Counted from the stretch's first letter, positions 4,954-60,312 are shown. The stretch is DNA of 64,000 bases from a virus (IMGVR_UViG_2609460327_000001:1-64000), one strand, 5' to 3'. The notes: generated by a model from the sequence alone, not told the origin. A program made the numbers and translations.

Positions 4954-4983
4954 CAAAAAGCCCCTGCCGTCGTAAGACGGCCT
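4954..4983 (-). repeat. Hairpin-box junction element, copy 1
   Basis: GCCGTC-TTAC-GACGGC-AGGGGCTTTTTG. Confidence 0.75.
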
Positions 4984-5289
4984 CTACCCAATGATGTTTG
5001 TTAGAATACCGAACGGAGAAACATGTTTAATGGCTCCTGCGGGAATTTTTGCTCCTTCTTGTAGAAGCATTTCTTCAAAAGCAGAAAGCATGCCTTCATT
5101 AACACGCTCGCTCATTGCAATTTCGCTACGCATAAAACCAAACAGGGAGAAGTCATCAGACACTGCCGAAAATGGAACAAAACCTTCGTTTTGACCATAT
5201 GGGAATGTATCAATTAGATTTTGAAGCTGATCTTGAGAAATCACTGCTTGTTTTTCTAGTTTTTGTACTACCAATTCAGGGTTAGACAT
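4984..5289 (-). CDS. Hypothetical protein
   Basis: GGAGG RBS. Confidence 0.7.
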   Translation of the reverse strand: MSNPELVVQKLEKQAVISQDQLQNLIDTFPYGQNEGFVPFSAVSDDFSLFGFMRSEIAMSERVNEGMLSAFEEMLLQEGAKIPAGAIKHVSPFGILTNIIG

Positions 5290-5321
5290 AATAAAATTCC
5301 TCCAATAAGTTAGTTTGTTTA

Positions 5322-6215
5322 TTATACAGGGGCAGTTGCCCAGTCTAAGTCAAATGCAAGTTGCCCTTCAAGAACTTTCTTGCCAGGTGTTGCAGGAACA
5401 AGAGAAATCGTTTTGCTTTGCTCAAAGCCCTTAAGCCATTGTGGATGGAAGGCATACCATGGAGCATACCAGTACGTCTGAATCTTGCAGAGCTTCACGG
5501 CGATCTGGCTGATATCTTGGGCAATCATTCGAAGAGTATGGTTTGATGCTGGAAGTATAGTAGCTCCGCATCCCACGCAGCCATCGTATACAGTCTGGCG
5601 TTTTTCCTCTTCAGGATCTCCACCCATCGTCATTTGTGTCATCATACACGTTATATTGAATGGCGTAGGAAAGTAGCCTAATCCAGACTTATATCCTTTA
5701 CCAGTTTCTTCTGAGAGCGTGTGAGACAAGTAATCGGTCGGATAATTTTGAACTAAAAATATATCGAACTCTCGATAGTAATGCTCATTCAGTTCAGGTG
5801 ATATCTTGAGCGTTTGATTTTCCGGTGAAGCCGCCAGCCCCCACATAAGCCAATCTGCAAAGTGATCGATCGTTGATTCGTGATGATCAAGGCATTTGCG
5901 CAGCATCTTTTGAGTTTCTTCGACACCTTCTCCACCTCGTTCTTTCCATTCAATTTGAGGGATCGGTCCGCTACCTTTGATCGTTTTCTTCTGCAATATC
6001 TCATGCCAGTAGTTCCATCTACCCCAAAGCAAATCATCATAGGAGAATAGGAATGGCAAAAGCCACCCCCTCTTCTCAAATACTTCCGAATGATTACTTG
6101 GAAGACCGCTTATCGCCTTGGCATATTCATAAATGCTAGATTGCATTTTCATGAGCTGCTCCGGAAGAAAACGATCAATTTGATATAGGTCCTGGCGCTT
6201 CTTGGCTTTTGCCAT
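5322..6215 (-). CDS. N6-adenine DNA methyltransferase-like protein (SAM-binding half only)
   Basis: GYFPTP and YDGCVGCG motifs; no NPPY/F. Confidence 0.7.
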   Translation of the reverse strand: MAKAKKRQDLYQIDRFLPEQLMKMQSSIYEYAKAISGLPSNHSEVFEKRGWLLPFLFSYDDLLWGRWNYWHEILQKKTIKGSGPIPQIEWKERGGEGVEETQKMLRKCLDHHESTIDHFADWLMWGLAASPENQTLKISPELNEHYYREFDIFLVQNYPTDYLSHTLSEETGKGYKSGLGYFPTPFNITCMMTQMTMGGDPEEEKRQTVYDGCVGCGATILPASNHTLRMIAQDISQIAVKLCKIQTYWYAPWYAFHPQWLKGFEQSKTISLVPATPGKKVLEGQLAFDLDWATAPV

Positions 6216-6227
6216 CCAAGATTCCCC

Positions 6228-6461
6228 CTATTCAATTGTTCTTTTATAATATATTATCGAAAACAGCAGAAAGCCGAACCGAATAAGTCTCGGTCTTCTA
6301 TCTATCCTCGGCAGCCAAAATATAGGCTTGGCACATTCAAATGCAACGGCATGTGCTTTATTATTGGCTGTGAACCATATTTCCACAGACCCCTTATTCT
6401 TGTTCACCCAAGGCTTAAACCTCTGTCTGATCCATCTTTTTGTCTTGATTTGCATCAGCAT
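6228..6461 (-). CDS. Hypothetical basic protein
   Basis: GAGGAGG RBS. Confidence 0.55.
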   Translation of the reverse strand: MLMQIKTKRWIRQRFKPWVNKNKGSVEIWFTANNKAHAVAFECAKPIFWLPRIDRRPRLIRFGFLLFSIIYYKRTIE

Positions 6462-6588
6462 TTTTCTTCCTCCTCTTCATTACCGGTATATAAATACTTG
6501 CATGAATCCGAGCAGAAGTTTTTATGCTTACGTCTCGTGATTTCATCTTCGCAATGAAGACATTTCTTTAATAAAACTGCTTCCATAT

Positions 6589-7062
6589 TTATGCTGTCTC
6601 CACCGTATCTTCATTATGGATGATCTCATAGGATCCATCCGGTTCCCGTTTCCATATCGTTGCATCATCTATTTCAGGATCGAAAGGCTCTTCAGAATAA
6701 TGCTCACGAAGGTGCTTCATGGCTTCTTCTTTAGTTTCGAATTTCGAAACATGGTCTACAATGCCGCCAGCGAGATAAACATTAATGAAGTCCCCATCAT
6801 AGATAGGATTAGATACATCGGCGCCTTCCAAAGGAATAGCATACCATTTACCTTTTTCGATATACTCGGATAACTCAGAAAATGAACACTTATACTCCTG
6901 CTCATGTTTGAGCTGCCATGGATAAAAACAGTGGGCAGCATAGTTATTATTGTCCTCATCTTGCAGGACAGCGACTATTGTTTTACCGTCTTCCCTCATC
7001 GTTCGAAAAGCCTCATAAACAGAACAGCGAACTGCTCCATCTGGAATTTTTACATTTGACAT
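6589..7062 (-). CDS. Hypothetical protein
   Basis: AGGAG RBS, 157 aa. Confidence 0.7.
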   Translation of the reverse strand: MSNVKIPDGAVRCSVYEAFRTMREDGKTIVAVLQDEDNNNYAAHCFYPWQLKHEQEYKCSFSELSEYIEKGKWYAIPLEGADVSNPIYDGDFINVYLAGGIVDHVSKFETKEEAMKHLREHYSEEPFDPEIDDATIWKREPDGSYEIIHNEDTVETA

Positions 7063-7246
7063 TTAGTAGCAACTCCTTTTTTTGCTAAGCAGCGAAATAT
7101 TTTAATCGACAGGTAAAACAATAATATTTCTTTATATATTCGTAGTAGTATTCAGACCTGCCGCATTCGACGCAGCGAACGCGGCACATCCAAATATTAT
7201 TAATTAAATATTTCTTCTCAAGGTAGCTCTGCATTAGATCCATAGT

Positions 7247-10200
7247 TTAAAAGAAGGCAAAAGCGCCTTGTCCTTCCACGATTCTCTCATTCTTGCGAAG
7301 TCCTTTGTTATATTCACGCACGTCCTCAACAACACGGAATATGTCTTCAATGTGGTCCATGTAGCTATTAAGATCATTCTGAGTGATTTTGCCCGAAGCC
7401 ACATCAATACGCATCTTATTAACCAGACCTTTCTGAATCTCACGCACTTTATCTATACCTAGTGGATTCATTTCATAAGAGTCGTAGCCCTCATAGGAGC
7501 TATTCTGCAGCTGCTCATAAGAAGCATTGATTCGTTTCCATCGATCTTCAATGGAATTGATATTATCCAGTCTTCCTTCACTCATAAGCTTCTTAGCCAG
7601 TGCATTGATGCCATCGCCAGAGTCTGCCATTGCACGAAGACCCTCTTCAGAGAACTTGCCTTGCAGAGCCATTGCCGCATCAATCTTCTTCGCAATGCTT
7701 TCTAGCACATCTGCCTGGATTGTATTGCGATAGACCGACGTACTAACTTCAACTTCCTCAGTCTGTTTAATCCGCCAAGATCGGCGTGAAGCCTGCATAT
7801 AGTTATAAGCACTGTAATCCATTTGATAGAAATGAATATGAGGGAACATAAGCAGATCAAGACCAACAGCGACCAGACGAGAGTTGGTTACAAGAACATC
7901 CCAATCATAGCGTTCCATATTCTTACGCAGCCAGGTTTCCCGATCCTCTTGCTTCGGCATCTTCATTCCATCATAGGTTCCAGATGAACGTAGGATACCA
8001 ACATTATAGCCATCCTGTTTAAGCCGCTCATACAGCCACGTATCGACTCCATTATCTCCGCCAGTAAAACGTCCATAGACAAGTACTTTACGGCCGCGTT
8101 CCTCGATCTGCTCCTCCAGAAGGCTCTGGAGCGCATAATATTTACTTGGAGTGTAATCTTCAGGGAAATTATACGGCTGACATAGCTCCTTAACCTTGTC
8201 ATGCTCATCAAGATATGTGATCGGCTCGTGTTTGAATGGCATATCTGCATACTGATAGAGCTTTGTGATATACGAGGAAAGATGCTTCATCCCGCCTTGC
8301 CCCATCGCATCCATGATGTTTTCTTCCAACTCGTCATACATTCTGCGATGCTCGTCTTCCATCTCGATGAACATTGGAATCTCACGATACGGCGGCAGTG
8401 CATAGCCTAGGTCACCCAGCTCGATAAAGGCACAGTTACTCATTAAGAAGCGCGGGAATACAAGTGGCGAAACGCCAGGCAACTGCTTCTTTCTCTTCTT
8501 GCCCTTACGATCATCGGTGAACTCTGTCATAGAACGTTCGTATACGCCATAGTTCTCAACGAAGCGGCTTTCATCATCATACGTAATACCTTCCAATTTC
8601 AGCTTCTTCGCGTCCAGTCTAGCCAGAAGATAGAAGATATCTCTTGCCATACCACCGAGAAGTGTACCTGTCAGCAAAATCTGCTTATTTGTATGATTGA
8701 TCAACTGACCGAAGGCATTCGCACGATCCGAGTCTCCACTCTTGTATTCATGAACCTCATCTGCGATCAAGTATTCAAAGAATCCACGACGAAGATGTTT
8801 ATTCAGATACCATGCAGGAGATACCTTTCTCTCGAGAGAGCGAGCAGGGAGCTTCTTAGCACTCCAAAAAATAAAGCCGCACTCTTGATCAGGAGAATCG
8901 CCCTTAAGACGCTGATGCTTAGGAAGAGCATCTTTTGAGACTTTATTGCGACAGCGGTAGTTTTCACGGTTTTGATTCCAAGCCCATTTGTCTTTACCGC
9001 GGCGAAGCTGGAAGTAATGCTCATCAGAGTACTTCTCTTTCGTCTTCTTAATCGGCTGTCCGCATTGAGGACAATACATAGCTTCAGGGCCAATAGCAGT
9101 TCGTGTTATCGCTGCACCATTTCTAAAGGAATTTTCTTTGGTCATACGAATGCGGATTTTCTTACCCGCTCTCTTTTGTGCAATGACTTCTTCATAGTCA
9201 TGATTTTTGACATATCCTTTGCGGAAATCCATAACCGGTTCAATCGGATATGTCTGCTTTGCTGCATCAGAACTCATGACATAGTATTCGATCTCTGTCG
9301 GGCGATACGGCATATTTCTTAAGCGATGTACATCCCGCCAGTTATTGATTTGATATACTTTCACATCAGGAATACGCTCCTCTATCTCCCGCTTCCATTT
9401 TTCGACCATTATTGCTGGCACAAATACGAGTGCACGATAAGGCTTAGGTTTCTCCATGCCTGATCGAATAGCATGAGTAACATAAGGAATTAGGGCGCCC
9501 ATTGGTGATTTACCAGATCCCATCTCACCGACGACAAATACGTAGTCATCCTCATCGTCTTTGATCGTATTAGCACAGCCCATAACGACATCTGCTTGTG
9601 GCGGGAACAATCCGGTAACACCTTTGGTGTTTGCATGAAGATTCGCATGATATAAAGAACGATGATGCTCTTCCTTTGTAGGATCAAAGCGCAATACAGA
9701 GTTTTCCTGAATCCGCTGGCCAAGCTCTCCTGCAAAGTTCTCGAGATACACATCCAACGTCGTGCAGTTCTTGAGTACAGATTCTTCTTCAGTTGGACCA
9801 TCGTCCAGAATAGCGAATGGCATGGAATAAGACCGAATACCTTCTGAAATAATGGCTTCCAGGTTCTCTTCAGTGATTCGAAGCAAAGCAGCTTCAAGAT
9901 CATAATCCTTACCATAGCTCTTTACTTCAAGGTTAGTCAGGAGACCATGATCATAACAAGCCTGCACGATCTCTTCCTTCCATTCAGGAAGCATTGGCGT
10001 ATTATATCGATCATTCAGTACTCGATACACTTCTGAGAAGATATCGCCATCCCAAGCTAAGATAAGTTCAGGATGTGGCCCTAGTGGCTGTATGCCTGAT
10101 TCAACGCGTTGCTTGTTTTCTAAAATGCGCATTTCCTTCTTCTTGATATCATTCTTGGCAGCTTTTGCTACATAAAGAGTGTTAACGATATCATCAATCT

Positions 10201-12245: not shown

Positions 12246-12348
12246 AGTATGGGCCTCCATTCAGTAACATAAGCTATTATAGCATGTTTTGAGCATAATA
12301 AAAGACGTTACAGGCAGAAAAATGTAACGTCTTACATTATGCAATGTT

Positions 12349-12882: not shown

Positions 12883-12923
12883 ATTATAAATAAGCATGAG
12901 GCTGAGGTCAATATTTCATATGA
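12883..12923 (-). promoter_or_regulatory. Consensus sigma-A promoter with an adjacent TCATATGA site
   Basis: TTGACC-17-TATAAT (12911-12883); TCATATGA at 12916-12923. Confidence 0.65.
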
Positions 12924-12948
12924 TATAGGATATACGAATTGTGTCGAA

Positions 12949-13632
12949 TTATGCCGCTGGCATGGCGCTCTTAACGATTTTATGAACAGTTTGCAATTCA
13001 TCAATGTCCAATTCGGTTAGATAATTAAAGCTGTGGCCTACTGCGCTCGCACATTGGTTAAAGACATTCTGGACATTGATATCCATATTGTACATTTGTT
13101 GCAAATAAAACGTGATTTGACTCTCAATATCAATGCGTCTTTTTGCTATATTTTCTGTCTCAATTACTTTTTGCATTTCCTCTTGGCTTGCGCTGCCGCT
13201 GTGATAGCCAAGATTATCTAAAGCACGGCCACTAGCCGACTCTTCACAGTTTTCTACCCAAGCATATTGATCCGCTTGGCGACCACCGGCGATAGAAAGA
13301 GAATAGCCGATAGAATCTGCACCTAAGAGCAGACCAATACTTGAAGCAACGATCGCTGCGTTATCCGGAGTAACGGACTTACATAGTTCTGTTACTGCAG
13401 TAACCGCTTCGGGTGAAAGGATGCGCTTTTCCTTATCCAGCCAGATTAAGGAAATATAGACTACATAATGATTAGCATAGTTAACGCCAGATATTTGCAT
13501 TGGATAAATGATGGAATTGGGATAATCAATACGTAAGCGTTCTTTTCTTCGTTTAACAGTCTCATATTTAGATGGATCAAAGCTGGAGCGTTTTCCTCCG
13601 TTGCCGTTATTGTATGCCACTATATAATTCAC
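12949..13632 (-). CDS. Rad52/Sak-like single-strand annealing protein
   Basis: YETVKRR..YPNS and VENCEESASGRALDNLG motifs. Confidence 0.65.
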   Translation of the reverse strand: MNYIVAYNNGNGGKRSSFDPSKYETVKRRKERLRIDYPNSIIYPMQISGVNYANHYVVYISLIWLDKEKRILSPEAVTAVTELCKSVTPDNAAIVASSIGLLLGADSIGYSLSIAGGRQADQYAWVENCEESASGRALDNLGYHSGSASQEEMQKVIETENIAKRRIDIESQITFYLQQMYNMDINVQNVFNQCASAVGHSFNYLTELDIDELQTVHKIVKSAMPAA

Positions 13633-17607: not shown

Positions 17608-17649
17608 GTGTATTGCACCTCATTTATTATATTATGAAAAAGTAATGTG

Positions 17650-17880
17650 TTACAAAGGTATTTTGGTATCAGGTTTAGACATATCTTGATCCGGAAGAAT
17701 TTCAGCATTCAAAAGCCATTTACGGAAGTAGCCAATATGCTCACCATGTAGCTGTTTGGAAGATGGCCTTTTATAAAAGACCATAATCCCTTCCATCCCA
17801 AGATATATGCGCTTTCTTTTACCTTTTTGCAGTACGGTTCCTGGCTTCATTACGTGAAGCTGAGCTAATGTTACGGCCAT
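17650..17880 (-). CDS. Hypothetical protein
   Basis: GGAGG RBS. Confidence 0.65.
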   Translation of the reverse strand: MAVTLAQLHVMKPGTVLQKGKRKRIYLGMEGIMVFYKRPSSKQLHGEHIGYFRKWLLNAEILPDQDMSKPDTKIPL

Positions 17881-19644: not shown

Positions 19645-19660
19645 CTCCTTATTTAATTTT

Positions 19661-19690
19661 CAAAAAGCCCCTGCCGGCGTAAGGCGGCCT
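19661..19690 (-). repeat. Hairpin-box junction element, copy 2
   Basis: GCCGCC-TTAC-GCCGGC-AGGGGCTTTTTG. Confidence 0.75.
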
Positions 19691-23124: not shown

Positions 23125-23180
23125 ATCCTTTATCCCAAAATGTAATGCATTACTATTTTAGCATAAAGGGTGCTAGGGTG

Positions 23181-30050: not shown

Positions 30051-30078
30051 AAAAAAGGCGCCACCGTAAGGCAGCGCC
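30051..30078 (-). terminator. Intrinsic terminator
   Basis: GGCGCTGCC-TTAC-GGTGGCGCC-TTTTTT. Confidence 0.75.
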
Positions 30079-30819: not shown

Positions 30820-30862
30820 CCTTCCTGTGTTTTGATTTTATGATGTAATTAAAAAAGACTAT

Positions 30863-30892
30863 CAAAAAGCCCCCGCCGGCGTTAGTCGGCCT
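30863..30892 (-). repeat. Hairpin-box junction element, copy 3 (loop supplies the upstream stop codon)
   Basis: GCCGAC-TAAC-GCCGGC-GGGGGCTTTTTG. Confidence 0.75.
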
Positions 30893-33312: not shown

Positions 33313-33326
33313 TTGTTACGATAAAG

Positions 33327-33365
33327 TATAACACGTTACAAAGTGAAAAGATATAATGCGTTACA
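33327..33365 (-). promoter_or_regulatory. Two 14-bp operators over an extended -10 element
   Basis: TATAACACGTTACA and TATAATGCGTTACA; TG-T-TATACT on the minus strand. Confidence 0.55.
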
Positions 33366-33532
33366 TTTTTGCAACGGCTATCTCGCGAAAGAGGCATTTT
33401 ACTCTGTATACCTAGGGATTTTGCGCGATACAAAGGAAAAAGCAAGGTTAAAAAAAGGCTGGACAGTATCCCGAAAGAAAGGAGTAAACTGACCAGCCTC
33501 AACTGAACATTTATTTTCAGTTAATTGCTATC

Positions 33533-36476: not shown

Positions 36477-37241
36477 TTAGCGTTGCGGTGCGCCGAATGG
36501 TGGTTGGAAATTACCTTGTGGCGGCTGGTTTTGAGGCATGCCTCCTTGTTGTGGGGCGCCAAATCCTGCAGGTTGTTGCTGACCAAATCCATTTTGTTGC
36601 TGGTTAAATCCTTGTTGATTACCCCAAGCAGGAGCGCCTTGTTGAGGCTGTTGCGGTTGCTGTTGGAACCCACCTTGCTGAGGCTGTTGCTGTTGGAAGC
36701 CTCCAGCTTGTTGCTGGCCAAACCCTTGTTGCGGCTGTTGCTGATAACCCTGTTGCTGGAATCCTCCGCCTTGTTGCTGTTGTTGACCAAAGCCGCCTTG
36801 TTGTTGATTAGATCCATTACCAGATTGATTGTTATTGCTAGAACCCAGACCTTGGATTTTGCTAACTTTGATGGTCGGAAACATACGGCCATCTGTGTTT
36901 TTCTTCAGCATTGGAATACCTTTGATGAAGAGTTGGCGACCCTTATAGCAGTGTTCCATCAGAAATTTAAAGTTACCGTCACGGTCGCCGTTCGCCCAAA
37001 CTTCAAGATTCCAATAATCCGGTTCAGATTGACCTTGGTGATTAACAGCTACACTTGCATTAGCAACTTTAGAATCTCCAACAGCTCTTGCATAAGCATG
37101 TACGCGATCGCCGTTTTGATTGTTTGGATCCTTTACAGTAGCCAAATTAACGATGAGCTCGATTTCTGCGTGGGAAGGCATGCTGTTCCCCTGATTGTTA
37201 TTTCCTTGTTGACCTTGACCATTATTTTGATAGTTAGACAT
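36477..37241 (-). CDS. ssb: Single-stranded DNA-binding protein with a Q/G-rich tail
   Basis: VAN.SVAVN..DYWNLEVW..KGRQLFIKG OB-fold pattern. Confidence 0.75.
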   Translation of the reverse strand: MSNYQNNGQGQQGNNNQGNSMPSHAEIELIVNLATVKDPNNQNGDRVHAYARAVGDSKVANASVAVNHQGQSEPDYWNLEVWANGDRDGNFKFLMEHCYKGRQLFIKGIPMLKKNTDGRMFPTIKVSKIQGLGSSNNNQSGNGSNQQQGGFGQQQQQGGGFQQQGYQQQPQQGFGQQQAGGFQQQQPQQGGFQQQPQQPQQGAPAWGNQQGFNQQQNGFGQQQPAGFGAPQQGGMPQNQPPQGNFQPPFGAPQR

Positions 37242-37279
37242 GTGAAAGTCCTCCTCAAGAGTAATTTAATTTATAATTT

Positions 37280-37307
37280 CAAAAAGCCTATGGAGCGTTA
37301 GCGACCT
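37280..37307 (-). repeat. Hairpin-box junction element, copy 4 (weak-stem subtype)
   Basis: GGTCGC-TAAC-GCTCC-ATAGGCTTTTTG. Confidence 0.7.
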
Positions 37308-38878: not shown

Positions 38879-38927
38879 TGCAATGCATTACAAAATAAAA
38901 GTACTACATATAATGTAATGCGTTACA
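38879..38927. promoter_or_regulatory. Two 14-bp operators at the 3D-gene promoter
   Basis: TGCAATGCATTACA (38879) and TGTAATGCGTTACA (38914); TTGCAA-17-TATGAT on the minus strand. Confidence 0.6.
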
Positions 38928-39011
38928 ATATAGGCGATAATCTTGGAGATATTAGGTTGTGATATTAGAATAGGTCAAAAATGCTCTGTTATACGAATTA
39001 ATATTACAGAT

Positions 39012-47753: not shown

Positions 47754-47779
47754 AAAAATTCCCTCCGTAAATTTAATTC

Positions 47780-47805
47780 TAAAAAGCCATAGGAGCGTAA
47801 GCGAC
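47780..47805 (-). repeat. Hairpin-box junction element, copy 5 (weak-stem subtype)
   Basis: GTCGC-TTAC-GCTCC-TATGGCTTTTTA. Confidence 0.7.
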
Positions 47806-48730: not shown

Positions 48731-49246
48731 TTATGAAACCGCCATTGCTGTTTCATATATCGTTTGTTTTGCTTTCATTGCATATTCACTTGAAATATGA
48801 ATAGCTTCGATATTATTCTCAGGAGCTGGACTGTCGGCCATATAATGGACTTTATAGCTTATAGTCTTTGACTCCAAAAGAGCATGAATTTGACGCCATA
48901 AATCCTCATGTTTGAGCTGATCGCCATTAGCTTTCTTGAAATCATTTTTAGCCCATTGATGAATCAGCTTATTTAGCCCCGCACTGACTTGCGGAATGCC
49001 GGTATAGATATGGACAAAGGCTTTTTTCTTTATTTCTTTAAGTCCTTCAAGAACTGCTTTAAGCGTCATTCGAGTTACAGTTGTATCCTTGCCATAGCCA
49101 CCAAGAGTTTTTTTATAATGCTGGCCACCCATAGCAGAATGAAGCATGACACAATAGCCTCCATCCTTATTGGTGTTAGCAGTACCGGATACCCACATTT
49201 CAATGCGCAAACAGTCAAATTCTTTCTTTCCTTTTGTGCCACTCAT
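48731..49246 (-). CDS. RNase HI-fold protein, predicted catalytically inactive
   Basis: Aligns by eye with RNase HI (GGY, TT..RM.L.AV.EGL, W..N.FK, DLW..I) but lacks the catalytic carboxylates. Confidence 0.75.
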   Translation of the reverse strand: MSGTKGKKEFDCLRIEMWVSGTANTNKDGGYCVMLHSAMGGQHYKKTLGGYGKDTTVTRMTLKAVLEGLKEIKKKAFVHIYTGIPQVSAGLNKLIHQWAKNDFKKANGDQLKHEDLWRQIHALLESKTISYKVHYMADSPAPENNIEAIHISSEYAMKAKQTIYETAMAVS

Positions 49247-49469
49247 CTTAAGCGACCTCCTATATAAAATAATGATATTTGCTGAAACATTTGATAAATC
49301 AAAATATTTGAATCACCAAATCTATCAACAAATTGCCTGATTTTGCATTCTTAATATGACATATTTCATACTACATATGATTTGAGTGCTCAAGAAATAG
49401 AAAAAGACCCACATCATATGATATGAGTCTAAATCGTATTTCATATATAGTATTTAGTAGAGTGGAGCA

Positions 49470-49850
49470 TCATTTTTTCCGAAAAAGATGATATAAATCT
49501 TTGACATGATCTGGAAGCTGGTCGAAGATTTCCTTGGGCATATCATCAATGTTTCCACCAAATACATTGACATAGCTGCTTAATTCAGGTTTTTGGAATG
49601 GGTCAAAGCTCTCTTCTTTGTTAGAAGGTGAAGGCATTTTTTTAAGCTCTTGGAATTTAGCCTTCTTAGCTTCCTTGATCTGCTCTTGAATGATTAATTT
49701 AAAAGTATCTCCAATACTATCGACAGTTGCTTCTTTCAAAGAAACTGAAATCTCATCAGCTTTAAGATTAAACTGACTTTCTTTATCTGAACCTTCTACT
49801 GGGTTAACGACATGGATAGATAGACCTTTGATTGTGATGTTAGCTTGCAT
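49470..49850 (-). CDS. Hypothetical protein
   Basis: GGAGG RBS. Confidence 0.7.
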   Translation of the reverse strand: MQANITIKGLSIHVVNPVEGSDKESQFNLKADEISVSLKEATVDSIGDTFKLIIQEQIKEAKKAKFQELKKMPSPSNKEESFDPFQKPELSSYVNVFGGNIDDMPKEIFDQLPDHVKDLYHLFRKK

Positions 49851-49888
49851 GATTAAATTCCTCCAAAGTATGTTTTATTATTTAACTT

Positions 49889-49918
49889 CAAAAAGCCCCC
49901 GCAGTCGTTAGACTGCTT
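49889..49918 (-). repeat. Hairpin-box junction element, copy 6
   Basis: GCAGTC-TAAC-GACTGC-GGGGGCTTTTTG. Confidence 0.75.
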
Positions 49919-52715: not shown

Positions 52716-52952
52716 TTAATTTGTGGTTGATTCTAACTCGTTATAGTATTCATCAAACTCGTATTCAAACTTTCGATCTATTACTGTGCCTTCTTCATTA
52801 AAAACAACTAGCATAGGAACTCCGAGAAGATACTCGCGAATTTCAAAATCGAGTCCTCGCTGATAAAGCTCGCCACCTATCATACCAAGTATTAAATCGT
52901 AGGCGTTATTTATTCTTTCAATTTCCTTCTGAATCTTAGGATCTTTTGGCAT
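52716..52952 (-). CDS. Hypothetical protein
   Basis: AAGGAGG RBS, followed by a terminator. Confidence 0.7.
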   Translation of the reverse strand: MPKDPKIQKEIERINNAYDLILGMIGGELYQRGLDFEIREYLLGVPMLVVFNEEGTVIDRKFEYEFDEYYNELESTTN

Positions 52953-53083
52953 CTACATATAATTCCTCCTTCTAGTAGTTTGCTAGAATTATACAATTGT
53001 GTTAAGCATATTAATAGTACTAATCAATAGTACGAAAACACGTCCTGATAAATGAAAGAGCCAAGCTTAATTACCTAATCGCA

Positions 53084-53202
53084 TCGTATAAGTATTTAAT
53101 ATATCATATGAAATAGGAATTATATAATATATCATACGATATAACTGTTATCGCATATGATATAAGACTTAAATCATATGAAATATCTTATAAATCATAT
53201 GA
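53084..53202. repeat. Array of TCATATGA-type palindromes with a 21-bp period
   Basis: Copies at 53084, 53104, 53132, 53153, 53174 and 53195. Confidence 0.7.
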
Positions 53203-53206
53203 AATA

Positions 53207-53425
53207 CTATTGAGCGGATTCAGATAGCTCCATTAGATAAGCCGAATAAATAAAGAACATCATAAGTATAATTGCTCCTATAACCTCAAACTTGCGCTTT
53301 AGCGGGATTTTAGGATTTCTGAGAGCGGGAATAGCGATGATAAAGCATAGGAAAAGAAACAGCTCGAATATGATAACAGCAATTGTATTATACGTCTGGT
53401 TTATATCTATGATTATAACCTCCAA
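53207..53425 (-). CDS. Two-TM membrane protein
   Basis: Two hydrophobic helices. Confidence 0.6.
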   Translation of the reverse strand: MEVIIIDINQTYNTIAVIIFELFLFLCFIIAIPALRNPKIPLKRKFEVIGAIILMMFFIYSAYLMELSESAQ

Positions 53426-53757: not shown

Positions 53758-53843
53758 AGGTAAAACCTCCAGTTTATGATTGAATAAGAAAAAGGACTGC
53801 TATATAGACAGTCCTCATAAAGCCCTTGCTATCGTTAGATAGC

Positions 53844-55238: not shown

Positions 55239-55273
55239 TCGACCACGTCCTTGTATGAAATAAAAAAGCTCAC

Positions 55274-55465: not shown

Positions 55466-55470
55466 CTCTC

Positions 55471-55941: not shown

Positions 55942-56104
55942 TTTGCTAAAAGAACTCCTTTCATAAGCGGAAAATGCGGTTCTTTGATCATATTAGCATA
56001 ATAAATATGCTTAATGATTTATTTCACTAATTAAATTATTAATGTAATGAAATAAATAATGAACATAATAAAAGCCGCCCAATAACGAGCGGCAATGAAA
56101 CACA

Positions 56105-56509: not shown

Positions 56510-56575
56510 ATGTATAGTCTCCAATCTAGTTAAAATGTAATGCGTTAAATTATATATCGGATAACATAATAATAT

Positions 56576-56604
56576 CATAAAGACCTCGGAGCCGTTAGGC
56601 TCCT
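56576..56604 (-). repeat. Hairpin-box junction element, copy 7
   Basis: GGAGCC-TAAC-GGCTCC-GAGGTCTTTATG. Confidence 0.65.
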
Positions 56605-57046
56605 ACAAGGCACCGACATAGTTGTAGTAATCGCCTTCAGAAGCAAAGGCGCCACCAAATGGACCGTCATTCTCATCATCGCATGGTGTGCCAAACTGAG
56701 AGATATATTCATGACCATCAGCATACCAAGCGCGAAGACCAAGCATGTATAAATCGTTATTAACCACAAAGCCGCCAAACTCATCATCAAGCTCTTGTTT
56801 TAAAGCAGGATTAGCATCTGGATAGTATTTCAAATCAATTTCAGGCTTGCTGATAACCGGTACGATAAGAGCAGGATCATAGCCTTGATCACGCATCTTG
56901 TTGATGATGTCATTACAGCATGCTTCTGCCCACATCTCAATACGAAGATCAGAAGAGCTGAAGCACTCAGGATTGTGTGAAGATGCTTTGTAGCCATAAA
57001 ACATCATAGAAATCACATGTTCAAAGTTTTCGTTATGTATACGCAT
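56603..57046 (-). CDS. Hypothetical acidic protein
   Basis: GGAGG RBS before ATG 57046. Confidence 0.7.
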   Translation of the reverse strand: MRIHNENFEHVISMMFYGYKASSHNPECFSSSDLRIEMWAEACCNDIINKMRDQGYDPALIVPVISKPEIDLKYYPDANPALKQELDDEFGGFVVNNDLYMLGLRAWYADGHEYISQFGTPCDDENDGPFGGAFASEGDYYNYVGAL

Positions 57047-57073
57047 TATAAATAGCCTCCATATGTATAAATT

Positions 57074-57103
57074 CAAAAAGCCCCCGAAGCCGTTAGGCTT
57101 CCG
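57074..57103 (-). repeat. Hairpin-box junction element, copy 8
   Basis: GAAGCC-TAAC-GGCTTC-GGGGGCTTTTTG. Confidence 0.75.
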
Positions 57104-57186
57104 AGAGCGATAGTTAATTGATTGCTATAAAGAATGCGAAAGCTCAATATCATTTGGCGCCGTTCCGAAGGATCGGCAAAAGAAAA

Positions 57187-57405
57187 TTAAAGATCAAATA
57201 GGCGATTATCACTATATAAGATACCTAGCTCTTTATCGCTATGGTATAGCTTCTTACCATACTCATAGCCAAGCTTATACTGAGGATCCTCAGTATATAC
57301 GCTAGGGTAGAGGGAGACATAGCCATAGCAATAATGATAAGCATCAACTACACCATTATAATACTCCTTAGTATTCTCCTTATAAGCAGACATCAGCTCC
57401 ATCAT
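57187..57405 (-). CDS. Tyr-rich small protein, (M)MELMSAY N-terminus
   Basis: Last gene of the coupled array. Confidence 0.65.
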   Translation of the reverse strand: MMELMSAYKENTKEYYNGVVDAYHYCYGYVSLYPSVYTEDPQYKLGYEYGKKLYHSDKELGILYSDNRLFDL

Positions 57406-57710
57406 GGCCCACTCCAAAATGGTGGATACATAATACCTACTATGTCAAACTCTCGAATATAGTGTTGATTAGAAGTACTCTCATCGTGAATCACAATGTA
57501 TTTAGAAATTAAATCTTCGTTAACCTCCTGAATAACGCCAGTTGCATAGGATCTGGATATCGTCTTATTATCTAAATCTACGTCATGATAATGTATCACA
57601 CGTACAAAATCACCTATATAGAAGTCGGCATCTTGAAATGTAATGCGATTCATTATAGGGGGAGAAAAGGTAAAACCAGTATTCTCTAAATAGACATTCA
57701 TTAATTCCAT
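57402..57710 (-). CDS. Sm/SH3-like small protein, MELMNVY N-terminus
   Basis: IGDFVRV..TGVIQEV..IVI..I...DIVGI. Confidence 0.7.
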   Translation of the reverse strand: MELMNVYLENTGFTFSPPIMNRITFQDADFYIGDFVRVIHYHDVDLDNKTISRSYATGVIQEVNEDLISKYIVIHDESTSNQHYIREFDIVGIMYPPFWSGP

Positions 57711-57979
57711 CAGGCGCCTCCATGAAGTTTGACATTATAGATATTTCCTTCGTATAGAGATATATGTCCATGGTTGGATCGAGGACCATCATCCGGATCT
57801 CGATATATAATTCGAAACATCATACGTTCATGCTGTGAATCGTCATCCCTGTGCATATACTGAGCAATATACTTTATTCCAGGCCGGTCATAGTAGTATT
57901 CGAACTCATAGACTAAGCCTGGAACCATATCTTCTGGTTCTATATGTTTGCGTAGGCGATAACTAGTCATTAATTCCAC
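57710..57979 (-). CDS. Small beta-barrel-like protein, (V)MELMTSY N-terminus
   Basis: GTG 57979 with RBS; MVPGLVYEF. Confidence 0.7.
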   Translation of the reverse strand: MELMTSYRLRKHIEPEDMVPGLVYEFEYYYDRPGIKYIAQYMHRDDDSQHERMMFRIIYRDPDDGPRSNHGHISLYEGNIYNVKLHGGA

Positions 57980-58206
57980 TCCCAACACTCCTTTATGTTA
58001 GATAGTGGTATGGAACAAGAATTAACTTCATGAAGCATGTTATCTCGGCCATCAAAAGAGACAAGTGCAAATGTAAGAGTGATTCCATCTTCGGTGGCAG
58101 CCGCGATCATGCCCAGATAATAATCATTGCTATAGGTAACAAATACATATTCATCACCTATAGCATACTCAAGCATGGTTCTAAGGTAAGGAGCAATCAG
58201 TTCCAT
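57970..58206 (-). CDS. Sm-like small protein, MELIAPY N-terminus
   Basis: IGDEYVF..YLGMI....DGITL..IPLSNI. Confidence 0.7.
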   Translation of the reverse strand: MELIAPYLRTMLEYAIGDEYVFVTYSNDYYLGMIAAATEDGITLTFALVSFDGRDNMLHEVNSCSIPLSNIKECWEWN

Positions 58207-58426
58207 AGATTTCATACTCCTTTATAGAGTCAACATGTAATGACATTTCTGATGTTGACTTAATATTACGAGGATCATCACATAAAGATATGTCTACCAT
58301 GCCAAGCTTTAAAAAGTTGCGGTCTAGGGAAACTACAGTTCCGAGCAACTGATCACCGTTGTTTAGTAACTTATAGTCACATCCTATATGAAGCAACGAT
58401 TTAATATACGATGAAATGAGCTCCAC
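58181..58426 (-). CDS. Sm-like small protein, (V)MELISSY N-terminus
   Basis: IGCDYKL..NGDQLLGTVVSLDRNFLKL..LHVDSI. Confidence 0.7.
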   Translation of the reverse strand: MELISSYIKSLLHIGCDYKLLNNGDQLLGTVVSLDRNFLKLGMVDISLCDDPRNIKSTSEMSLHVDSIKEYEIYGTDCSLP

Positions 58427-58428
58427 GA

Positions 58429-58671
58429 TCAATCACTCTCCATATAAATACTTAATTGATCTATCTCGTCTGGTGCAAACATCATCCCTATTCTGCAGTA
58501 CTGATTATTGATAGTATACGTGTGAAAGATCAAAACTTGAGAATCATGTCTATGCTTATGGAAAACAGCAATATGATACTGACCTTCATAATAAAAAGAA
58601 TAGGTATTGCCAGGGATAAGCTGATGCGCAGCAACAATAGTTCGTTCAAAGTAAGGAGACATAAGCTCCAT
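58429..58671 (-). CDS. Small beta-barrel-like protein, MELMSPY N-terminus
   Basis: GAGGTG RBS; LIPGNTYSF. Confidence 0.7.
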   Translation of the reverse strand: MELMSPYFERTIVAAHQLIPGNTYSFYYEGQYHIAVFHKHRHDSQVLIFHTYTINNQYCRIGMMFAPDEIDQLSIYMESD

Positions 58672-58684
58672 TATATACACCTCA

Positions 58685-58945
58685 TTAGCGCTCTTTTACA
58701 CTACCAGGATCCGCTCTGCGCAGGATCTCATCATAGACAGCGTATGCATATTCCCAGTCTTCGAATTTCTTATCATATATAGAGATGGTTTCCCATCCTC
58801 GCCAGCCACCAACATCACTCCAATAGTCTTTTGAAACAATGATTCGAGCCGGTTTAGGGAGAATATCCCCAGTCCTTTGAATCTGAGAGTAATGCTTAAC
58901 GCTATCTTTAGTGAAAAAATGTCTCTTTATAGGCTTAGCACCCAT
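58685..58945 (-). CDS. Hypothetical protein
   Basis: GGAGG RBS. Confidence 0.7.
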   Translation of the reverse strand: MGAKPIKRHFFTKDSVKHYSQIQRTGDILPKPARIIVSKDYWSDVGGWRGWETISIYDKKFEDWEYAYAVYDEILRRADPGSVKER

Positions 58946-58956
58946 AGCAATACCTC

Positions 58957-59154
58957 CTATAGGTGCCTTCTTGTAGCATGACCAGCTTCAATAAGTTTAT
59001 TAAGATAGCGTAGCTGCTGCGCTGCATAGTATGGATCATCACTATCACTAAGCCTATTCTTTATATCTTGCAGGGCAATCAGCGGGAAATCATATTCACC
59101 AATCAGCTTATTTATCTCAGCTGATACATACTCATGAGTAATCTCTTGACTCAT
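58957..59154 (-). CDS. Hypothetical protein
   Basis: AAGGAAG RBS; EYDFP..ALQDI..RLSD..Y..QQLRYL. Confidence 0.65.
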   Translation of the reverse strand: MSQEITHEYVSAEINKLIGEYDFPLIALQDIKNRLSDSDDPYYAAQQLRYLNKLIEAGHATRRHL

Positions 59155-59155
59155 A

Positions 59156-59359
59156 TTATCTTCCTTTCTTAATAAGATTATCAAGCTCTCTACTGATATT
59201 ATCGAGAGCTTGGCTTTCTCTGGTCTGAGCATCATGTATGCGCTTAGTTGATCGGCGTATAGATAGAATATTGATTACGGCAATGGCCGCAATGGCAATA
59301 GATATTACAGATATAACAGTCGAGACCCAGAGTATAGGGCTCATAAGCATCAACTCCAA
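59156..59359 (-). CDS. Single-TM protein
   Basis: Hydrophobic helix plus coiled coil; start uncertain. Confidence 0.6.
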   Translation of the reverse strand: MELMLMSPILWVSTVISVISIAIAAIAVINILSIRRSTKRIHDAQTRESQALDNISRELDNLIKKGR

Positions 59360-59492
59360 TGCATAGGGTTTTAAAAGGTTTTAGCGCCGTTCCGTAAGGA
59401 TCGGCAAAAAGAAAAAATCCAAGCCGCATACCATTAATACTATAGCTCACTATATAAACAGTATACAGCATAAGCATACATAGAAGATAAGA

Positions 59493-59798
59493 CTATAGAT
59501 CAAGTAGAGGAACATTCCTATTAGGAACAGATATCATCTCAGTACCGAAAGAGCCCATACGCAAAGATACAGCACCAACATCTATAAGCTTACGCATACG
59601 ATACTCCAGTTCCTTCTCAGTAAGACCATGCTTCATATCATAATAGTTAGGATACATTTGAACTACAGTATAGAAAGGAACCTCCTCATTACCTGAGATA
59701 TCTAACGTTTTAGTTATAGCATGCAGAGCCTCAAAGTTGCGATAACCTAATTGTTCATTAGTGTAATTCATATCAAATTCATTAACAGCATTGTTCAT
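59493..59798 (-). CDS. Winged-helix-like protein (paralog A)
   Basis: GGAGG RBS; MK..L.EKELEYR..KLIDVG. Confidence 0.65.
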   Translation of the reverse strand: MNNAVNEFDMNYTNEQLGYRNFEALHAITKTLDISGNEEVPFYTVVQMYPNYYDMKHGLTEKELEYRMRKLIDVGAVSLRMGSFGTEMISVPNRNVPLLDL

Positions 59799-59821
59799 AT
59801 CATTAATCCTCCTATAGATAA

Positions 59822-59902
59822 TTAGAATATAAGCTGGGCGATCAATAAACCAGTGGTAACACCCAGCGCAAAGTAAACAACAACATCCCATTTAGTACGC
59901 AT
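59822..59902 (-). CDS. 26-aa hydrophobic peptide MRTKWDVVVYFALGVTTGLLIAQLIF
   Basis: Translated by hand; AAGGAGG RBS; fills the gap between the paralogs exactly. Confidence 0.55.
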   Translation of the reverse strand: MRTKWDVVVYFALGVTTGLLIAQLIF

Positions 59903-59915
59903 ATATAAATCCTCC

Positions 59916-60254
59916 TTAAGATACAGCAGATACAGCATCATATCTCTTCATACCAAGCTCAGTAGGAGAGAGTATATCATTCATATCTATAGTCTCTCTA
60001 TATATAAAGCCGGCATCAATCAATACAACCAGTCTATACTGGAACTCCTTCTTGCCCATAGTATACTTCATATTCACACTATGGTAACTAGCATGTAGCA
60101 TGCAGAGATTGCTACCAGAGATAGTTCTTCCAGTATGTAGTCTAAGCATATCCATGAGAAAAGCAAATACATCTAAGTTGCGATTACGTACTTCCTCTTT
60201 AGATAAACTATGATCGAATAAGCTACGTCCTTCAGTTAGCAATTTGTTGCTCAT
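59916..60254 (-). CDS. Winged-helix-like protein (paralog B)
   Basis: MK..M.KKEFQYRL..LIDAGFI..PTELG. Confidence 0.65.
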   Translation of the reverse strand: MSNKLLTEGRSLFDHSLSKEEVRNRNLDVFAFLMDMLRLHTGRTISGSNLCMLHASYHSVNMKYTMGKKEFQYRLVVLIDAGFIYRETIDMNDILSPTELGMKRYDAVSAVS

Positions 60255-60285
60255 ATAGATAGCCCCCTTGTTCAAGTTAAACATT

Positions 60286-60312
60286 CACAATGCCACAGGA
60301 GCGTTAGCGACC
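60286..60312 (-). repeat. Hairpin-box junction element, copy 9 (weak-stem subtype)
   Basis: GGTCGC-TAAC-GCTCC-TGTGGCATTGTG. Confidence 0.6.

Follow-up and report, generated by a model that had tools for sequence, protein, structure and literature searches.

Hairpin-plus-box elements downstream of a YonO-type RNA polymerase gene in a Bacillus-type phage and its relatives: candidate promoters at gene junctions

A 206,307-bp Bacillus-type phage record contains ten copies of a hairpin-plus-box element, all of them at gene junctions and all on the minus (coding) strand of a 64-kb arm headed by an RdRP/YonO-type polymerase gene (Table 1). The same element design is found in the same place in relatives whose polymerases are 33-81% identical. 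From sequence comparison, we see about an even chance that the elements are hairpin promoters used by the single-chain two-barrel RNA polymerase that the phage encodes. If this were true, a YonO-type polymerase would be switching on the replication genes of the phage, and not its virion genes. Here, the window is the whole stretch of DNA that was analysed, 64,000 nt in length.

Sequence and distribution of the element

Each element consists of a covarying stem of 5-6 bp with an invariant closing C-G pair and a loop that begins with T and ends with C on the coding strand. An earlier sequence-only reading of the window had described nine such elements, giving for each the position of the conserved G that ends the T-run. 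All nine are present as described, on the minus strand, together with a tenth copy (element 4, core at 53838). The core that had been called invariant, CT(A/T)ACG, is found as CTWACG in ten of ten copies (CTAACG in seven and CTTACG in three), and the three copies that had been considered nearly stemless are indeed of the GTCG-C-TWAC-G-CTCC type. The proposed box, by contrast, reads GGCTTTTT in seven of the ten, the remaining three being GGCTTTAT, GGTCTTTAT and GGCATTGT.

When a loose regular expression was run over the whole 206,307-bp record, it matched nothing on the plus strand and 11 sites on the minus strand. Ten of these are spread over 4976-60307, and the eleventh, at 145219, has no stem and is likely a chance match. 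A covariance model, R1, scored the ten elements at 37-51 bits, with the next best match in the window at 13 bits and none above 13.6 bits between 64 and 206 kb. The remaining 142 kb, where the virion genes lie, holds none of the elements; counted by intergenic gap, 10 of 49 are occupied in the polymerase arm and none of 46 in the other (Fisher p = 0.0012). No element matched any of the Rfam covariance models, either at the gathering score or at E up to 1.

The polymerase matches the Pfam RdRP family (PF05183, E 1.1e-7, 31.4 bits against a cut-off of 23.8), and its GGADxDGD motif is unvaried across 16 homologues; alignment with SPbeta YonO by hhalign reaches a probability of only 50% (E 1.6e-4). 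A structured non-coding stretch follows the gene. The earlier reading had implied an analogy with SPbeta that must be corrected, as the polymerase arm carries replication genes and not late virion genes, which are located on the other arm. Two self-cleaving ribozymes are also contained in the polymerase arm. About 15 sigma-A-like promoters were recognised there by eye on spacer sequences, and a consensus scan for sigma-A-like sites gave no excess over shuffles. The sequence-only reading had described the junctions as generally lacking a sigma-A/operator signature; at one of them, 56598, a sigma-A-like promoter site (56578-56549) and the palindromic site do lie downstream of the element (element 3).

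Table 1. Elements and associated features of the polymerase arm (window coordinates; R1 scores in bits)
Feature	Position	Strand	R1	Stem, box and context	G001 orthologue
RNA polymerase gene, single-chain two-barrel (RdRP/YonO-type)	60892..64000	-		ORF continues to 64593 beyond the window, 1233 aa
Canonical terminator-like hairpin	60839..60870	-		directly after the polymerase gene; 14-pair stem and T-rich tail; flagged by terminator scan
Element 1	60285..60311	-	39.7	GTCG..CTCC class; conserved G 60286	61283
Element 2	57073..57101	-	45.5	stem GAAGCC/GGCTTC, loop TAAC; conserved G 57074
Element 3	56575..56603	-	42.6	stem GGAGCC/GGCTCC, box GGTCTTTATGA	68306
Element 4 (tenth copy)	53815..53843	-	39.3	stem GCTATC/GATAGC, box GGCTTTATGA
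Canonical terminator-like hairpin	53792..53816	-		starts at the conserved G of element 4; flagged by terminator scan
Element 5	49888..49916	-	50.9	stem GCAGTC/GACTGC	73146
Element 6	47779..47805	-	37.1	GTCG..CTCC class, box GGCTTTTTAGA	75209
Element 7	37279..37305	-	48.8	GTCG..CTCC class	84590
Element 8	30862..30890	-	44.0	stem mismatch A.C on the coding strand (G.T on the template)	91069
Element 9	19660..19688	-	47.2	upstream of DnaG-type primase gene; C.C stem mismatch	102518
Element 10	4953..4981	-	44.6	stem GCCGTC/GACGGC; upstream of sliding-clamp (DNA pol III beta) gene

Position between genes

Distances to stop and start codons in this genome derive from our own crude ORF calls. According to these, the next start codon is 26-67 nt away (roughly 30-70 nt in the sequence-only reading), and in nine of ten copies the stop codon of the gene before is placed at -9 to +3 nt relative to the stem. 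In elements 1 and 8, the TAA of the loop is itself the stop codon, of a 75-aa ORF and of a resolvase-like gene, respectively. In the relative G002, the hairpin likewise touches or overlaps the preceding stop codon in 13 of 17 copies, whereas G004 shows a median of 18 nt (IQR 3-41) between stop codon and stem. From the conserved purine to the start codon, the median in G004 is 28 nt, with 13 of 15 copies within 13-45 nt, and the downstream distances of G000 and G002 are similar. Across genomes, spacing is held to the next start codon and not to the preceding stop.

At a fixed position after the stem, the triplet TGA is found in 8 of the 10 copies of this phage, and in G004 and G002 a pyrimidine-purine step occupies a fixed position in 14 of 16 and 14 of 18 copies, respectively. 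Some of the junctions are only 47-66 nt long, too short to accommodate a further promoter ahead of genes such as those for the primase and the clamp. Element 7 precedes a 254-aa gene (37241..36477) for which the designation SSB-like is only a lead, searches of Pfam, PHROGs and PDB with the protein having given no match; in G002, a copy of the GTCG..CTCC class (60079) stands ahead of the syntenic gene.

Conservation in related phages

The co-occurrence with this polymerase clade that had been suggested for examination was observed: at least eight related genomes have the element downstream of their polymerase gene and nowhere else. For instance, G004, a complete 229-kb record, has 15 forward and 0 reverse copies, all at most 56 kb downstream of the polymerase gene; G002 has 16 versus 2 copies, and G254, G255 and G256 have 3, 6 and 4 hairpins on the polymerase strand downstream of the gene, with 1 further hairpin on the opposite strand in G256. 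The number of copies per arm ranges from 10 to 18. In the shared design, a box of the form C-W-T-N3-G-A follows the stem at a fixed distance. Its sequence is TTCAT-N3-GA in G002 and G003 and ATTC-N-T-N3-GA in G004, with the hairpin and spacing retained, and no T-run is present in the boxes of the relatives.

The covariation of the stems, which had been noticed in the window, exceeds that of shuffled controls in both alignments used. In A1 (18 copies), 76.2% of the cells are paired versus 61.6% after shuffling, with none of 500 shuffles as high; in A3 (59 copies from five genomes), the values are 82.2% and 56.4%, and the covariation score is 0.591 versus 0.182, again with 0/500 as high. Five of the six stem pairs vary on both sides among the 59 copies, and only four bases, the closing C-G and the loop ends T..C, are unvaried in all 59. 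On the template strand, these four read C-[G..A]-G, i.e., a loop C-GNNA-G. The sole copy with a 3-nt loop (TAC), which is the G001 orthologue of element 3 and shows a compensatory change in the stem (GCAGCC/GGCTGC), still reads G-T-A on the template. Among the other G001 orthologues, that of element 9 has a perfect stem through two changes, and that of element 8 retains the mismatch.

The stemless class comprises 13 of the 59 copies, in four genomes. Its coding strand, with tandem C.T/T.C, forms no good stem; its template strand reads GCG-NN-AGC with flanking tandem G.A/A.G, and GCGNNAGC is the mini-hairpin motif that has been published. In the 46 other copies, the coding-strand mismatches are AC (2), CA (2), CC (1), TC (1), CT (1), TT (2) and GT (2), with no purine-purine mismatch on that strand. 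Folding energies computed with DNA parameters favour the template strand in 50 of 60 copies and the coding strand in 3, by a small margin (mean -4.47 vs -4.08 kcal/mol). Wobble counts do not discriminate between the strands.

Terminator and boxA comparisons

The elements resemble intrinsic terminators in having a GC-rich hairpin after a stop codon with, in this phage, a T-run nearby. Nevertheless, as the sequence-only reading had pointed out, the T-run is set away from the stem: it starts 5-6 nt after it, against the 0-2 nt required, and a terminator scan of the coding strand flagged none of the 10 elements but over 10 canonical terminators of that arm. With relatives lacking the T-run as well, canonical termination was rejected. 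At least one canonical terminator here, that at 30057-30078, is closed by the same loop, C-TTAC-G, and extended terminator-like versions with this loop occur in G002 (52817) and G003 (33389). At the junction of G001 orthologous to that of element 4, there is a canonical terminator only and no element.

A hairpin followed by a short single-stranded box is also the arrangement of lambda nut and of the rrn boxB-boxA leaders, to which the elements had been likened. This reading was not supported. The box of the copy at 19683 agrees at 9 of 12 positions with GCTCTTTAACAA, a boxA of the E. coli type (L113), but the likeness to boxA is confined to this phage and its sister, the relatives having TTCAT-N3-GA. 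Copy number and linkage to a phage polymerase differ from the nut and rrn systems too.

Possible roles of the element

Of the two interpretations originally offered, that of promoters for the element's own RNA polymerase gains indirect support, and that of nut/boxA signals is left unsupported. Under the promoter reading, the inverted repeat would extrude into a small hairpin, whose template loop 5'-G-N-N-A-3' closed by C:G would form a stable DNA mini-hairpin of the kind used by the N4 virion polymerase. The polymerase would read the hairpin and the following box C-W-T-N3 together and initiate transcription on the conserved purine (T-1 G+1 A+2), 11-12 nt past the stem base, so that leaders would be about 16-67 nt long and contain the ribosome-binding site. 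Such promoters would drive the replication-type (middle) genes of the arm that begins with the polymerase gene.

We favour this reading because the element tracks the polymerase gene across genomes, because its invariant bases are those reported as needed in N4 promoter hairpins, and because the distance to the downstream start codon is fixed. The failure of the elements as terminators argues in the same direction, as do the start-like pyrimidine-purine step at a fixed position, the stemless class and the mismatches, which suit a DNA hairpin on the template strand, and the precedent set by the two-barrel polymerases of P23-45. Several observations weaken it. Element 4 directly precedes a terminator hairpin and is missing in G001; element 3 occupies the usual place of a terminator before a sigma-A-like promoter; and the same loop closes canonical and extended terminator-like hairpins. 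Moreover, the arm already has its sigma-A-like promoters, the element is missing from two divergent spacers of G002, which must contain a promoter, the TNAC and TRTC loop types do not cleanly follow the polymerase tree, the strand effect in folding energy is small, and the late operon of SPbeta is without such a hairpin.

A serious rival, although we rate it as unlikely, is a junction signal at the RNA level in a polycistronic mRNA, with hairpin and box recognised either by a protein or by the polymerase as it transcribes. Such a signal might be an endonuclease site making the downstream 5' end, a site for a phage RNA-binding regulator, or a hairpin-stabilised pause 11-12 nt downstream, relieved when the ribosome completes the preceding gene. 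Where stems at gene junctions covary, RNA hairpins are by far the more frequent case, and here the stems covary and the element is found on the coding strand only. An RNA signal coupled to translation would likewise be compatible with the adjacency to stop codons here and in G002. In hairpin-stabilised pauses, the hairpin is also 11-12 nt from the 3' end, as the stem is from the proposed start; in those of class I, the pause, at Y-1 G+1, comes about 11 nt after the RNA hairpin, with a G at -10 in the consensus. This geometry is present in the elements, with the G at -10 in this phage, but that G is kept in neither G002 nor G004, and G004 does not keep the stop-codon adjacency either. The ribozymes indicate that RNA processing does occur in the arm, and a C(UNAC)G loop closes the true terminator mentioned above; however, the family-wide loop consensus, U-N-N-C, of which UNAC covers only a part, fits no RNA tetraloop family that we know of, and in the most conserved class of copies there is hardly any RNA stem. 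Action by host polymerase or host nucleases would also leave unexplained the restriction to the polymerase arm that is seen in three complete or near-complete genomes.

The elements could instead be terminators or attenuators specific to the phage polymerase, similar to the 26-nt motif of P23-45 gp96, dividing the arm into units. Their closeness to stop codons in this genome, the position of element 3 before a sigma-A-like promoter, the canonical terminator that G001 has in place of element 4 and the extended versions that resemble true terminators (as in G002) are consistent with this. We nevertheless find it quite improbable, as the short junctions would leave the primase, clamp and SSB-like genes without a promoter, and 10-18 efficient stops in series along the arm would silence them; the spacing kept to the next start codon, the terminator scan and the stemless class, which argues against a hairpin-driven stop, speak against it as well. 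Antitermination, in which the hairpin would be boxB and GGCTTTTTGAA boxA, loading NusB/NusE on the host polymerase, seems to us very improbable. It would draw on the boxA match of the copy at 19683 and on the location of element 4 just ahead of a terminator, but the relatives G002, G003 and G004 conserve hairpin and spacing and not a boxA, ten reloading sites per 60 kb are no feature of known nut or rrn systems, and the link to the phage polymerase gene would be left without explanation.

Comparison with other phage polymerases

To our knowledge, DNA-hairpin promoters have so far been known only from coliphage N4. When the same search rule was applied to the first 9 kb of N4 (EF056009), three hairpins were found, at 94, 563 and 4552, upstream of gp1, gp2 and RNAP1, each of the form stem-CTNCG-stem followed by TT(T/A)(T/G)G. 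According to the sections of an N4 review that treat its promoter hairpins, the template-strand loop must have a 5' G and a 3' A and be closed by C:G, and stem bases outside the conserved ones need only pair. Promoters of the N4 type also have their transcription start a fixed distance after the hairpin, depend on supercoiling and SSB for hairpin extrusion, and are active on single-stranded templates. The elements share with N4 P1-P3 the small inverted repeat with variable stem bases, this loop and closure (59/59 copies), several co-oriented copies ahead of genes and, in this phage, a coding-strand T-run (template A-run) and a predicted G start after the hairpin. They differ in the loop (CTNNCG, 4 nt, or 3 nt in one copy, versus CTNCG, 3 nt), in the distance from the stem base to the proposed start (11-12 nt versus about 5) and in number and place (10-18 copies over ~55 kb of replication genes versus 3 at the genome end). 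Additionally, the polymerase is encoded behind a host-type promoter in a temperate 200-kb phage. Since it is an RdRP-type, two-barrel DxDGD enzyme and not T7-like as in N4, the element would be at most a functional analogue of the N4 promoters, not a member of their group. We tentatively propose, with rather less than even confidence, that a ~200-kb temperate Bacillales myovirus family may have reached N4-style promoters independently, in which a sigma-free RdRP/YonO-type polymerase would use an extruded template d(C-GNNA-G) mini-hairpin, open 11-12 nt and start at T-1/G+1, switching on replication and not virion genes.

In the Thermus phage P23-45, two single-chain two-barrel polymerases, gp96 and gp64, are reported to have sequence-specific promoters of their own, with conserved DNA motifs at mapped starts and, for gp96, at mapped stops, the latter being the conserved 26-nt terminator motif. 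The comparison is by description only: these motifs are described as AT-rich and GC-rich, and the word hairpin is absent from the main text of that report.

SPbeta YonO is reported to have one start site, at genome position 2225998, which serves the late virion genes, and the account of that site gives no promoter sequence. Here, by contrast, there are many sites, before replication genes, and the two proteins are only marginally alignable. Both are nonetheless single-chain two-barrel polymerases of temperate Bacillales phages, each encoded at the start of a long run of co-directional genes, and a non-coding stretch is found in each case, after the polymerase gene in this phage and, as an unannotated non-coding RNA, after the YonO start site in SPbeta.

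Genome layout and the polymerase gene

According to our crude ORF map of the 206,307-bp IMG/VR record, whose first 64 kb make up the window, the genome is divided into two arms, one read from the minus strand (1 to ~65.6 kb) and the other from the plus strand (65.6-206 kb). Downstream of the polymerase gene, directly 3′ of which lies a canonical terminator, the minus arm carries many small genes and replication-type genes, coding for two SNF2 helicases, an AAA ATPase, ThyX, a methyltransferase, a glycosyltransferase, RecA, a UvrD-type helicase, a resolvase-like protein, a DnaG-type primase and a sliding clamp. The plus arm codes for terminase, portal, tail sheath, and tail and virion proteins, with a DNA polymerase gene near its end. 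In SPbeta, the reported role of YonO is to transcribe the block of virion genes, whereas here the polymerase heads the replication block.

The sequence-only reading had called this polymerase YonO-like, a description that is valid for membership of the two-barrel RdRP-type superfamily, given its match to Pfam RdRP (PF05183, E 1.1e-7, above cut-off) and the presence of the GGADxDGD motif, which is invariant in 16 homologues. Anything closer is not sustained, because SPbeta YonO aligns with the polymerase only marginally (hhalign probability 50%, E 1.6e-4) and no solved structure matching it by sequence was found. No close DNA relatives appeared when 15 kb were compared by megablast with the phage collection, and tblastn with the polymerase returned one weak match. 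Another product of this arm, of 254 aa, had no match in Pfam, PHROGs or PDB sequence searches; in the Atlas it resembles families of SSB proteins, with a feature score of 0.86 and a structure TM of 0.64 over 105 residues, and its description as SSB-like is a lead only.

Positions and properties of the features discussed in the text
Feature	Position	Strand	Remarks
Polymerase ORF	64593..60892	minus	1233 aa, heads the minus arm
Element 1	60285..60311	minus	
Element 2	57073..57101	minus	
Element 3	56575..56603	minus	
Element 4	53815..53843	minus	tenth copy
Element 10	4953..4981	minus	
SSB-like 254-aa protein (lead only)	36477-37241	minus	Gln/Gly-rich C-terminal half
Non-coding stretch	60532-60840	minus	309 nt, between polymerase-gene terminator and next small ORF; ~76% identity in sister contig; no Rfam match
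Pistol self-cleaving ribozyme, RF02679	51917-51981	minus	47.3 bits (gathering 34.5); between small polymerase-arm genes
Type III hammerhead candidate, RF00008	53430-53486	minus	42.7 bits (gathering 48.5), E 5.7e-6; CUGAUGA...GAAA core visible by eye; one gene downstream of element 4
tRNA genes (two)	2394-2465, 2044-2118	minus	in 700 nt of non-coding sequence, close to the far end of the polymerase arm
TGTAAYGCRTTACA palindrome, window	3500-3560, 12290-12345, 17630-17660, 23140-23165, 33320-33385, 38885-38950, 56525-56545		
TGTAAYGCRTTACA palindrome, plus arm	e.g. 77499-77551, 102289-102339, 195241-195325		in about ten spacers
TCATATGA-centred repeat clusters	52947-53212 (5), 49241-49475 (4), 12900-12950 (1 copy)	minus	in long spacers
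TTGTTTGGT-N4-TATA...ACTAAACTAAAC	83616-83662, 124912-124962	plus	virion-arm spacers outside the window

Hairpin-box elements of the polymerase arm

All nine elements that had been reported downstream of the polymerase gene were confirmed on the minus strand, together with a tenth copy. They consist of a 6-bp stem, an invariant C-TWAC-G core, a variable spacer of 3-4 nt and a box, GGC-W-T-N3-G-A, which in most copies is GGCTTTTTGA. Three copies have a poorly paired GTCG..CTCC sequence in place of the stem, as described before. A loose regular expression applied to the whole record matched the plus strand nowhere and the minus strand 11 times, that is, at the ten elements and at 145219, where there is no stem. 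Additionally, the ten elements score 37-51 bits with R1, a covariance model built from 18 copies, while nothing else exceeds 13 bits in the window or 13.6 bits in 64-206 kb. Elements occupy 10/49 intergenic gaps of the polymerase arm and 0/46 of the other (p = 0.0012). With our own crude ORF calls, the conserved G lies 26-67 nt ahead of the next start codon, and in nine of the ten copies the start of the stem is at -9 to +3 nt relative to the upstream stop codon; in two copies that stop codon is the TAA of the loop.

The elements do not correspond to canonical terminators. A scan of the coding strand flagged none of the ten, and over ten ordinary terminators along this arm; the T-run is indeed set away from the stem, starting 5-6 nt after it, and the elements of related phages have no T-run. 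Rfam gave no match at the element sites, either at gathering score or with E relaxed to 1. A role as primase or replication priming sites was also discarded, since this would require copies on the opposite strand in the second arm, where there are none, as were a translational operator, since the distance to the ribosome-binding site varies, and a loop-downstream pseudoknot, for which inspection by eye gave no consistent complement. Despite the suggested likeness, the box is not regarded as a boxA: one copy agrees with an E. coli-type boxA at 9/12 positions, and this likeness is confined to the phage and its sister contig while hairpin and spacing are conserved family-wide. The sequence used in that comparison, L113, lies on a truncated contig (G007 contig C34), the one contig with 16S recovered from the Oceanobacillus profundus assembly; as it has an E. 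coli-type spacer with tRNA and boxA GCTCTTTAACAA, it is probably a contaminant.

Elements in related genomes

The sister contig (G001, IMG/VR) is syntenic, with ~70% DNA identity and a polymerase 81% identical, and has orthologous elements at 7/8 comparable junctions, plus one extra copy. The GGAGCC/GGCTCC stem of element 3 is there GCAGCC/GGCTGC, with a 3-nt loop, a C.C stem mismatch has become a T-A pair, and the loop A is G in four copies. At the junction of element 4 there is only a canonical terminator, the element 2 junction has no homologous sequence, and one junction falls past the contig end.

A polymerase profile retrieved about a dozen more records (93-229 kb), with polymerases 31-45% identical, among them contigs of Alicyclobacillus shizuokensis and O. 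profundus; the lysogens with related elements are A. shizuokensis NBRC 103103 and O. profundus DSM 18246. In these relatives, the hairpin-box unit recurs immediately behind the polymerase gene, in the same orientation. In the related phages G002 and G003 it reads [4-bp stem]-C-TGAC-G-[stem]-N2-TTCAT-N3-GA, with at least 18 copies across 53 kb in G002. In G004, which is complete (229 kb), it is C-TGTC-G or C-TATC-G followed by ATTC-N-T-N3-GA, with 15 forward and no reverse matches, all within 56 kb after the polymerase gene. The same hairpins, with weaker boxes, were found in five further records (G005, G006, G254, G255 and G256). As the box of the relatives differs, R1 is blind to their elements.

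Both here and in G002, elements precede syntenic, size-matched genes (primase, clamp, a 244-aa gene and the SSB-like gene), matched by ORF order and length and not by a family search of the G002 genes, and in both the SSB-like gene is preceded by the GTCG..CTCC form. A scan of viral contigs for this stemless motif gave 36 loci, which we sorted by our own reading of their sequence contexts: four belong to the sister contig, most others are one unrelated coding-sequence family, and three that looked intergenic (L031, L033 and L038) reach only 14-19 bits with R1.

Covariation and the folding strand

When 59 copies of five genomes are aligned, four columns alone are invariant, namely the C and G that close the loop and the T and C at its ends. 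The stems covary: 82.2% of cells are paired versus 56.4% in shuffles, with none of 500 shuffles as high, and the covariation score is 0.591 versus 0.182, a value that no shuffle of 500 reached, the slid controls being at most 0.18.

On the template strand, these family-wide invariants read 5′-C-[G-N-N-A]-G-3′. In the GTCG..CTCC class, found in four genomes and accounting for 13 of the 59 copies, the coding strand has tandem C.T/T.C mismatches, and the template strand reads GCG-NN-AGC with tandem G.A/A.G on either side; in the remaining 46 copies, coding-strand mismatches are never purine-purine. With DNA folding parameters, the template strand is the more stable one in 50/60 copies, by a small margin, and wobble counts (two G.T versus four A.C/C.A) carry no information on the folding strand. 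Hairpins of the d(cGNNAg) type have reportedly been the subject of a selection paper. A 2026 review describes GCGNNAGC and GCGNAGC as extraordinarily stable DNA mini-hairpins. Loop invariants, mismatch pattern, folding energies and the comparison with N4 discussed below would favour a template-strand DNA hairpin, an indication that is suggestive and not decisive.

Position of the elements relative to genes

The hairpin hugs the upstream stop codon here and in G002, but in G004 the stop-to-stem distance has a median of 18 nt (IQR 3-41), with only 4/13 copies within -9..+4. For the spacing between the conserved purine and the next start codon, the medians are 37.5 nt (this phage), 28 nt (G002) and 28 nt (G004), and the purine stands 13-45 nt before that codon in 8/10, 12/17 and 13/15 copies, respectively. 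As this distance is kept in the three genomes and stop adjacency is not, the element is tied to the downstream gene, which fits a promoter or another signal defining 5′ ends and disagrees with a terminator of the upstream gene. Some junctions, of 47-66 nt, leave no room for another promoter before primase, clamp and other genes. TGA occurs at the proposed start in eight of the ten copies, and a pyrimidine-purine step in 14/16 (G004) and 14/18 (G002).

Comparison with known systems

According to the N4 review, the N4 promoter hairpin requires a C:G loop-closing pair and the loop 5′G and 3′A for extrusion and stability, pairing is all that is needed of the variable bases of its stem, and four consecutive template A's serve as a ruler ahead of the +1 C. 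Applied to the first 9 kb of N4, the hairpin rule matched exactly three sites (94, 563 and 4552), upstream of gp1, gp2 and RNAP1, where the coding strand reads stem-CTNCG-stem followed by TT(T/A)(T/G)G. These matches appear to fit the description of P1-P3 in that review, an agreement with the description and not with mapped coordinates. In the phage genome, a rule requiring only three extra pairs is unspecific alone (19-22 matches per strand). The elements are stem-CTNNCG-stem, one loop position longer than in N4, and the one copy with a 3-nt loop, CTACG, has the N4 format.

The SPbeta late operon has no such hairpin, and the 2017 YonO paper, which reports one start site, does not define its promoter. 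In the papers searched, we found neither hairpin promoters nor any defined promoter for YonO-type polymerases of Bacillales phages; the supplementary motif logos and start-site tables of the YonO and P23-45 papers may matter for this comparison.

A promoter reading and its alternatives

We give roughly even chances to the elements being promoters specific for the phage polymerase. They would act like the N4 hairpin promoters from outside the N4 system, since the polymerase family differs; this N4-like hairpin form takes most of the weight that we give to promoters. In such a scheme, host-type promoters, many with the palindrome TGTAAYGCRTTACA, would express the polymerase gene, which is followed by its canonical terminator. 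The polymerase would then recognise extruded template-strand hairpins plus the box and start at the conserved T-1/G+1/A+2, 11-12 nt from the stem base. That length is about the upstream half of the bubble of a two-barrel polymerase, and the geometry of a hairpin-stabilised pause matches it equally well, which counts against the promoter reading. At element 4, a terminator hairpin begins exactly at the conserved G; it could become the 5′-terminal stem-loop of the new transcript and still stop read-through from upstream.

Covarying hairpins at gene junctions are usually RNA, and we regard an RNA-level junction signal as less likely than a promoter but as a serious rival. The absence of an element from two divergent G002 spacers and its being dispensable at the element 4 junction of the sister contig also speak against promoters, as does the loop type, which does not track the polymerase tree (in view of the lack of clean co-divergence, polymerase-loop co-evolution is not proposed). 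A terminator or attenuator specific to the phage polymerase seems improbable and is at odds with the tie to the downstream gene. Three further points weigh against promoters: the same loop closes real terminators (30057-30078; G002 52817; G003 33389), element 3 occupies a terminator-like place ahead of a sigma-A-like promoter, and the P23-45 work shows that, besides promoters, conserved terminator motifs can exist for phage polymerases of the two-barrel kind. A nut-like site, to which the rejected boxA comparison is relevant, we regard as very improbable.

For promoter recognition by single-chain two-barrel polymerases (YonO, crAss-like gp66 and relatives), the elements offer a concrete candidate signal, with 60 natural variants and clear predictions for loop, stem and box mutants. 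Should the hairpin act as DNA, hairpin promoters would be known from a second system, and for the first time from a polymerase of the cellular (two-barrel) lineage, which would bear on DNA opening by a sigma-less enzyme. Should it act as RNA, it would still be a junction signal not yet catalogued and linked to a single family of phage polymerases.

Other features of the genome

The non-coding stretch behind the polymerase-gene terminator folds at -111.4 kcal/mol, versus -87.0 kcal/mol in shuffles (z = -5.3, 0/100 shuffles). It may be a structured RNA, reminiscent of the unannotated RNA of SPbeta that is located past the start site of YonO. The TGTAAYGCRTTACA palindrome adjoins or lies just downstream of sigma-A-like -10 boxes in both arms and is probably a phage repressor operator or a 5′ leader hairpin, and the TCATATGA repeats could be iterons or a second type of operator. 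The motif common to the two virion-arm spacers may represent a separate type of late promoter.
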